DNA from: a virus
Lineage: Duplodnaviria; Heunggongvirae; Uroviricota; Caudoviricetes
Strand: one strand, 5' to 3'
IMG/VR virus record: IMGVR_UViG_2531839485_000010
Length of the DNA: 27,146 nucleotides
The first letter of the stretch is position 1; each line of letters begins with the position of its first letter. A program made the translations under genes and the position numbers. Below the pieces are notes generated by a model. The model had not been told where the DNA came from. It ran no database searches and saw only the letters and a list, made by a program, of their open reading frames with translations. This document shows positions 4,509 through 5,671 of this stretch, in pieces.

Positions 4509-5438
4509 TCAGTAGTTATGTACTGAAGGAGGTAATTCTTTATTCTTAAGTCTCATCCATGCGGAAAGATTCGTTGGTCCGTCTGGCTCATTAATATCAA
4601 CATCTCGTGTGTGGTTTATTAAAACGTCTCTCGCCATTCCGATAACATACGAGAACTCATGACCGTAGTCGTAGCATCTGCCGGAATAGTTCGATTGAAT
4701 TTGTTTTAGCGCCGGATACAGTTCGCGGAATAATGCCTGTGAGCGGTTGGCATAATCCCATAACCATACAAGGCTGTTTGCTTCTTTTGCAGAAAGCTCG
4801 TTGGTTTTCTTCTCTTGTTTGCCAATGAACTCACCTTCAAGTGGAACTCGAGCTGCAAGTGACAGTGCTTCGGTAAACTGCTCCTCACTGATTTCTTTGT
4901 ACGAACATCCAAAATGGGATTTCAGTGACGACCACATGGTGATCATCGCCTTAGCCTGTTTTTCTTTTGGCAGAGACTGACCGCGACTCATGACAAGTTG
5001 TTTAATGGCTTCCTGCTGTTCAGTGGTGATTTTACCCGGCAACGCCTTTTTAGCTTTGCGTGGGTTAACTACATGGCCTTTAGTCCAGTACTCGTAGAGA
5101 ACATCGTCACACTCTTCCTGATACTGGATTACCTTGTCGCGGATTTCATGGCGGACTTTGTTAGGACTGATGGTTTGCAGCCAGCCAGCAAGTTTACGAA
5201 GTGCCAAACAAATAATCTCACGGCACTGTTCATCACCAGGAAGCTGCATTGTGATTTTCACAATGGAGGTTTTAAACCGTTACTTTATTTTCGTAAACTG
5301 TGAAGCCCAATCCATACCCATGCCTTCAACGATAGGTTTCATTGGGGTGTACGGCTCACCGTTGTGATTGACAACATAAAGCTCTGCGCCGTGGAATGGT
5401 ACATTGATAGTAGATACTGCTGTTGCTATACTTTTCAT
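4509..5438 (-). pseudogene. ant: Antirepressor (Ant-like) gene interrupted by an in-frame TAA at 5280..5282; N-terminal 52 codons (5283..5438) plus a 250-aa ORF (4509..5261)
   Basis: Position between arc and tailspike is as in P22 immI. ATG at 5438 has an AGGA SD; the N-terminal 52 codons (MKSIATAVSTINVPFHGAELYVVNHNGEPYTPMKPIVEGMGMDWASQFTKIK) are in the same frame as the 250-aa ORF, separated only by one TAA. The internal ATG at 5261 has no SD (preceded by CCTCC). Total 310 codons, about the size of P22 Ant. Confidence 0.6.
5404..5432 (+). promoter_or_regulatory. Near-consensus sigma-70 promoter antisense to the ant 5' end (TTGATA-17 bp-TATACT); candidate Psar
   Basis: -35 TTGATA at 5404-5409, 17-bp spacer, -10 TATACT at 5427-5432; predicted start about 5439, exactly opposite the ant start codon and SD. 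Confidence 0.45.
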
Positions 5439-5515
5439 GTCGTTAATTCCTATGCGTGGTTTTACGATACCGAAGCCCTGACTGTTACCGCAGTTGGGGC
5501 TTCAACGTTTTGATT
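5439..5515 (+). ncRNA. Candidate sar-like small antisense RNA covering the ant ribosome-binding site, ending at a hairpin plus T-tract
   Basis: Downstream of the promoter above, a hairpin (GAAGCCC 5472-5478 / GGGCTTC 5497-5503, with inner ACTG/CAGT pairing) is followed by AACGTTTTGATTTCTTT. The 230-bp arc-ant spacer has no ORF on either strand. By analogy with P22 sar RNA; not verified. Confidence 0.35.
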
Positions 5516-5671
5516 TCTTTGCCGCATCAAGCATCACTTCTGAAAACGTGCGCTTGCCACTGAATACTCTTTCTCTTCTCAATTTTTCGTTCGTGCCAAA
5601 TGATTCGCCATGAACAAAATTTGGTCTTAAAATGGTAATCGCAATCTCTTTGACTACTGCATCCAAGCGAA

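Follow-up and report, generated by a model that had tools for sequence, protein, structure and literature searches.

A predicted sar antisense RNA opposite the ant leader of a P22-like prophage

Introduction

Which regulator is encoded on the strand opposite the start of the antirepressor gene ant? This is the question raised by the immI-type region of the IMG/VR virus record IMGVR_UViG_2531839485_000010, whose whole stretch of 27,146 nucleotides is referred to here as the window. The ant moron, together with a sar gene, has been described as a feature of P22-like phages in the ε34 genome paper (PMC2629481). In the window, an initial annotation made from the letters of the sequence had suggested that a sar-like antisense RNA lies opposite the point where ant translation begins, and the analysis presented here bears that proposal out. 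The plus-strand segment that starts at position 5439 and ends around 5509 very probably encodes sar antisense RNA in a P22-like prophage of the Lederbergvirus type.

Identity of the sar element

The assignment is founded on a search of the whole window with covariance models. The Rfam model for sar RNA (RF00262) matches at 5440..5507 (+) with 81.8 bits (E = 5.7e-16), nearly twice its gathering score of 43 bits. The match runs end to end, covering model positions 1-68 of 68, and a search of the sub-region agrees with it. A model of our own (R1) gives 85.5 bits at 5439..5511. Besides sar, the only matches at Rfam gathering score in the whole window are two tRNAs.

The position and context of the element are also those of sar. 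It is found opposite the ant leader, over the ant Shine-Dalgarno sequence (SD), in the interval that separates ant from the gene upstream of it in the Pant operon, and its setting is a P22-like phage module of the immI type (mnt, arc, ant). In P22-like phages such a module has the genes for the ejection proteins on one side and the tailspike gene on the other (PMC2629481). The element has a predicted promoter of its own in the sequence of the first ant codons, convergent with Pant, and a 5' hairpin displaying the anti-SD that is followed by a 3' GC-rich terminator hairpin and U's. Judged by its sequence, the element is an actual member of the sar family and more than an RNA "like" sar. The start at G5439 is predicted from homology to P22 and from its 7-nt distance to the -10 hexamer, and the 3' end would fall in the U run 4-6 nt past the hairpin, after the model of the 68/69-nt P22 RNA. 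Likewise, transcription, the exact 5' and 3' ends and translational repression in the window are expected by extension from the P22 literature. The coordinates of all features are collected in Table 1.

Table 1. Predicted features of the sar locus and its surroundings in the window
Feature	Position	Strand	Basis or remark
Predicted sar RNA, about 70 nt	5439..~5509	+	RF00262, R1, P22 alignment
Psar -35 hexamer TTGATA, 5/6 consensus	5404..5409	+	Promoter scan
Psar extended -10 TGcTATACT	5424..5432	+	Antisense to ant codons 3-5 (Ser-Ile-Ala)
sar 5' stem-loop	5439..5468	+	Anti-SD UCCU (5448-5451) in interior/apical loop; folds
sar terminator hairpin, 14 bp and 4-nt loop	5472..5503	+	Identical to that of P22; fold, alignment
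sar tail AACGTTTTGATTTCTTT, U run at expected termination site	5504..5520	+	Sequence
ant start and N-terminal 52 codons	5280..5438	-	Ends at in-frame TAA 5282-5280; SD AGGA 5451-5448
ant remainder, 250 codons, same frame as the N-terminal part	4509..5261	-	PHROG Ant families
orf57, putative 57-codon ORF between arc and ant	5502..5675	-	phrog_17642, RefSeq
arc homologue, 50 codons	5672..5824	-	Pfam PF03869 Arc, E = 7.5e-12; same 153-bp gene in RefSeq
Pant-like promoter TTGACT-17-TATCTT	5861..5889	-	Scan; placed like the P22 arc-ant promoter
mnt homologue, 82 codons, divergent	5939..6187	+	Pfam Arc/RHH domain; P22 gene order
607-codon ORF, tailspike gene candidate	2475..4298		N-terminus read as P22-type

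The sar RNAs are already known as a described family with a curated Rfam model, and public genomes contain copies of the element that are identical or nearly so. Its occurrence in the window has therefore little significance by itself, as it is a textbook antisense regulator that a reader can recover from the sequence alone. What the analysis supplies is an RNA annotation that is absent from the RefSeq records of near-identical E. coli prophages, which carry no RNA gene at this place; this constitutes an annotation gap and not evidence of absence. Modestly useful additions are the stronger -35 hexamer of this lineage, together with an additional small ORF adjoining the sar terminator, and the behaviour of the ant leader as an exchangeable cassette.

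The Psar promoter and the start of the RNA

As the initial annotation had read it, a near-consensus promoter-like site is situated in the first ant codons on the opposite strand. The two hexamers, TTGATA and TATACT (5427-5432), are separated by a 17-nt spacer, share 10 of 12 bases with the consensus and are accompanied by a TG at 5424-5425; the whole site (5404..5432) is antisense to the interior of ant codons 3-12. Nonetheless, promoter-like sites in the 2-kb region occur at chance level (three found, compared with 3.2 expected from shuffles). Since their number does not exceed that of the shuffles, the call of Psar rests on conservation and not on the scan. In this regard, 126 sar loci were scored and TGC plus TATACT is present in 103 of them, and TGn plus TATACT is nearly invariant. 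The -35 hexamer varies among sar loci: TTGATA (5/6) is found in the window and in the CUS-3 type of ant, and it is much nearer to consensus than the GTGTTA (3/6) that occupies the same spacing in P22.

The expected start, G5439, lies 7 nt past the -10 hexamer and abuts the ant ATG (5438-5436, -). As the start adjoins the ATG, the RNA would cover the ant SD (AGGA, 5451-5448, -) but not the AUG. The start had earlier been placed across from the SD and the ATG; it would instead lie beside the ATG, and the AUG is probably left uncovered.

Folding of the RNA and its terminator

An 81-nt stretch of the element folds at -28.3 kcal/mol (z = -4.2), and none of 200 shuffles was as stable. The terminator hairpin corresponds to +34 to +65 of the sar RNA and is followed on the plus strand by AACGUUUU. 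A strong hairpin with a T-rich tract, as noted in the initial reading, is indeed present, although the distance of 60-75 nt downstream that had been given for it fits only the 3' end of the hairpin. A simple consensus terminator scan returned no site in the region; its rule called for an 8-nt stretch with 5 or more T, no further than 2 nt from the stem. This blank is explained by the T run, which is interrupted and begins 4 nt past the stem, and the P22 terminator is laid out alike. In fact, a spacer of 3-4 nt followed by a short U run is characteristic of sar terminators, that of P22 included.

Conservation and covariation among relatives

The exact sequence of the terminator hairpin is present in at least 120 IMG/VR contigs. 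It also occurs in two species-representative genomes, those of Pectobacterium brasiliense (L126) and Entomohabitans teleogrylli (L127). Both loci, outside Escherichia and Salmonella, contain full sar-like elements beside the hairpin, with R1 scores of 74 and 71 bits, respectively.

Hairpin-bearing loci comprise about ten distinct 5'-domain sequences, each of which forms a hairpin from the first base after CAT. In an alignment of 18 sequence types, compensatory changes on both sides were observed at four of the five consensus pairs of stem 1. These stem pair counts leave out the alignment made with a covariance model (A4), which includes weak reverse-strand hits and has some stem-1 variants out of register. 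To avoid selection on the hairpin sequence, a second sample of 80 loci was chosen by the Ant protein alone. In all 80 of them the strand opposite ant has a sar-like element directly against the ant ATG, with R1 scores of 28-88 bits. In this Ant-anchored sample there are five different terminator alleles, in which a stem of 12-14 bp is kept by compensatory changes, as exemplified by the replacement of CUGACUG/CAGUUGG with UCAAUGG/CCAUUGA. The notion of a hairpin invariant in sequence, acting as a protein or recombination site, was rejected on this basis, given that at least four other alleles with compensatory changes were found in the same sample. Among relatives, both the stems and the promoter are thus conserved in the manner of an RNA gene under selection.

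The immI neighbourhood and orf57

A Pant-like site, which is a predicted promoter, would drive arc, orf57 and ant towards sar. The interval between arc and ant had been described as a 230-bp spacer with no ORFs. Its length is close to that figure (233 bp, 5439-5671), yet it holds orf57, which matches phrog_17642 (E = 8e-43). Both the record of phage phiv205-1 and RefSeq E. coli genomes list orf57 as a CDS (WP_000620145.1 in RefSeq). The GTG start of orf57 has a 4-nt overlap with the arc stop, and an AGGGG lies 8 nt upstream of the GTG. At its other end, the TGA stop (5504-5502) shares two bases with the 3' end of the sar terminator stem, which puts the sar tail antisense to the last orf57 codons. 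All copies of this putative gene in the fetched loci are identical, over 169 of 174 nt. A tblastn search with orf57 returned one phage record only, and the ORF had no Pfam match. Three IMG/VR loci lack most of orf57, owing to a deletion that runs from one GCATC(C)AAGC repeat to another.

Further away, the 607-codon ORF would be a P22-type tailspike gene, to judge by its N-terminal sequence and by the tailspikes annotated at this place in related records. In related E. coli prophages (compared through L004, 3252-3788), a ClpP-like protease is encoded beyond mnt. In the window, mnt is followed by a 69-codon ORF with no Pfam match (6184-6393, +) and then by an ORF with a P63C domain (6597..7658, -). 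The DNA beyond mnt thus adds one more mosaic difference. A pair of neighbouring tRNA genes, tRNA-Thr(TGT) and tRNA-Asn(GTT), is located at 24295-24450 (-) within the phage-like region.

The target gene ant

The ant ORF begins at ATG 5438-5436 (-) with MKSIATAVSTINVPFHG... and matches phrog_524 (anti-repressor Ant; E = 5e-24), and the downstream 250 codons match phrog_245 (E = 3e-72). In a DNA alignment, codon 53 of ant is TAA in the window, CAG in E. coli PA45B and CAA in CUS-3, and the window is alone in having TAA at this codon among the seven loci with the motif. The 250 codons past the TAA remain in frame and are well conserved, which points to a recent nonsense change or to a sequencing error. 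The target of sar is probably non-functional in this copy. As ant is broken by the TAA, repression of Ant may lack consequence in the window. The regulatory element beside the broken gene looks intact.

Proposed mechanism

In the mechanism that we propose by homology with P22, RNA polymerase would start at Psar, with its extended -10 in the first ant codons, and would transcribe away from ant until termination after about 70 nt, at the GC-rich hairpin and the U's behind it. The resulting RNA would be fully complementary to the leader of the ant mRNA, and its 5' hairpin would display UCCU against the ant SD. Pairing of sar with the arc-orf57-ant transcript from Pant would then hide the ribosome-binding site, and less antirepressor would consequently be made. 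In P22, the pairing of sar with the ant leader is described as lowering Ant synthesis (PMC7968456, PMC12197685). The P22 RNA has a length of 68/69 nt (PMC12197685) and has been detected by small-RNA sequencing (PMC13397905).

Mosaicism and the leader as an exchangeable cassette

On the left of the terminator hairpin, the window resembles CUS-3, and on the right it resembles phiv205-1. Past the hairpin, a 3-4 nt spacer and TTT(T) are kept across the loci compared (L006-L127), after which many unrelated classes of sequence follow, whether arc directly, orf57 or other genes. This abrupt change right after the hairpin, spacer and T's implies that the sar terminator is a recombination junction. The record of CUS-3 labels the hairpin stretch as "bsq2; boundary sequence". 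A high flux of the ant moron has been described (PMC2629481), in accord with the terminator being such a junction.

A further discontinuity affects the other end of the RNA. In loci that share 93-100% identity with the window over the initial 60 nt of ant, the 33-nt ant leader (5439-5471) is only 52-70% identical to that of the window; in one further leader class the ant start is 77% identical to the window. Leader variants are represented by L245, L248, L278, L305, L310 and others, several of them with the terminator hairpin of the window, and all the divergent leaders fold alike. Divergence of the leader between conserved flanks indicates that the 5' domain of sar is swapped as a cassette, and it suggests that there may be sar specificity classes for action in trans. 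That the 33-nt leader, and with it the sar 5' domain, serves as a specificity cassette exchanged between phages is a speculative reading, which we regard as rather doubtful. If sar also acts in trans, the leader alleles would define "immunity classes" of immI, as c4 does in P1/P7, and a resident prophage would, through its sar, shut off the Ant of an incoming phage only if the two leaders matched. Silencing in trans of this kind would explain why an intact sar with a strong promoter (-35 TTGATA) is kept beside a dead ant. The exchangeable leader gives a testable idea on antisense-RNA specificity classes among P22-like phages.

Alternative explanations

The broken target gene raises the possibility that the element is a decaying relic. 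Once ant had acquired its nonsense codon, sar would be without selection and would do nothing even if it were transcribed. The TAA at codon 53, set against CAG and CAA in relatives and private to the window among the loci with the motif, speaks for this scenario, whose probability we consider appreciable although clearly below even. The sequence of sar itself speaks against it, because from G5439 to the first U's it is base-for-base identical to the copies in L259 and L274, whose ant genes match the Ant query over their full length. The sar of the window is thus without decay, by which the ant nonsense change again looks recent, or a sequencing error. Moreover, such an RNA might retain an effect in trans or on the ORF upstream.

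A different function might be assigned to the hairpin alone. It could mainly serve the Pant transcript, stabilising or processing the arc-orf57 mRNA, or serve the genome as a recombination "boundary sequence", and the promoter hexamers would then be a by-product of the conserved Ser-Ile-Ala. The mosaic junction to the right of the hairpin and the CUS-3 annotation described above speak for this reading. In addition, the hairpin is nearly palindromic, therefore it forms in the ant-sense RNA too, and the reverse strand of the region gives a weak sar match. Nevertheless, the U run is on the sar side only, and TGn plus TATACT, together with the fixed distance to a hairpin at the predicted +1, is kept across very different Ant N-termini and leaders; the sar RNA of P22 has, besides, been seen experimentally (PMC13397905, PMC12197685). 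A recombination junction is also compatible with a sar terminator, as an added property and not an alternative to it. Taken together, this explanation appears improbable. Finally, the assignment to a plasmid-type countertranscript (ctRNA) or another antisense family can be given practically no weight. In an 801-nt stretch, ctRNA_pGA1 (RF00236) gives a weak match over the hairpin region (29.1 bits, E = 0.0012), but this falls under its gathering score of 45, is driven by the terminator hairpin alone and has no replication genes nearby. The comparison of scores on the same bases, 81.8 bits for the sar model against 29.1, refutes the ctRNA_pGA1 identity.

Comparison with known systems

The c4 RNA of P1/P7 represses an antirepressor ant gene by pairing around its ribosome-binding site, in trans, and its sequence variants set immunity specificity (PMC12197685). 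It resembles sar in repressing an antirepressor, but the element of the window is on the strand opposite ant. c4 is encoded upstream on the ant strand and is processed from the operon transcript, in contrast to a cis-antisense RNA with a convergent promoter of its own. The c4 family has no Rfam match in the window at gathering score, nor at E up to 10 in 5200..6000. OOP of lambdoid phages and RNA-OUT of IS10 are, like sar, short cis-antisense RNAs; each has its own promoter and ends at an intrinsic terminator, and each reduces expression of the gene opposite to it (PMC12197685; works cited in PMC7968456). Yet the sequences, targets and contexts of both are unrelated to those of sar, and OOP pairs with the 3' end of cII. 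OOP acts through RNase III cleavage.

Among closer relatives, CUS-3 has a Psar and a sar 5' domain identical to those of the window, but other DNA to the right of the hairpin, with arc not annotated (CUS-3 record; PMC2629481). The ant-orf57-arc-mnt block of the window is 97% identical to that of 29 complete E. coli genomes. Unlike the window, the prophages of E. coli PA45B and related strains have an intact ant of 309 codons.

The best-described counterpart is the sar RNA of P22, for which Liao et al. 1987, Wu et al. 1987 and Schaefer & McClure 1997 are cited in PMC2629481. The initial annotation had held that the window reproduces the P22 sar architecture, and this is confirmed by the P22 sequence X01916, in which the -10 hexamer, its distance to the ATG and the 32-nt hairpin are unchanged and mnt, arc and ant are the neighbours. 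In both phages sar is cis-antisense to the ant leader, with its start, predicted in the window, at the base after the ant ATG; they have in common TTGCTATACT, identical three bases before CAT, and a G at the corresponding start. TGcTATACT lies inside the first ant codons in both, two hairpins follow, the first with the anti-SD, and the terminator hairpin is base-for-base identical and is succeeded by a short spacer and T's, all within an immI region of mnt, arc and ant. The differences concern the 5' domain, which reads GUCGUUA...UUACGAU in the window and GUUGGU...ACUGAC in P22, with compensatory changes that keep the stem and one additional nucleotide in the domain of the window, as well as the premature stop in ant, unlike P22. 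Furthermore, orf57 is interposed between arc and the sar terminator in the window, whereas in P22 the arc stop is 4 nt from the hairpin.
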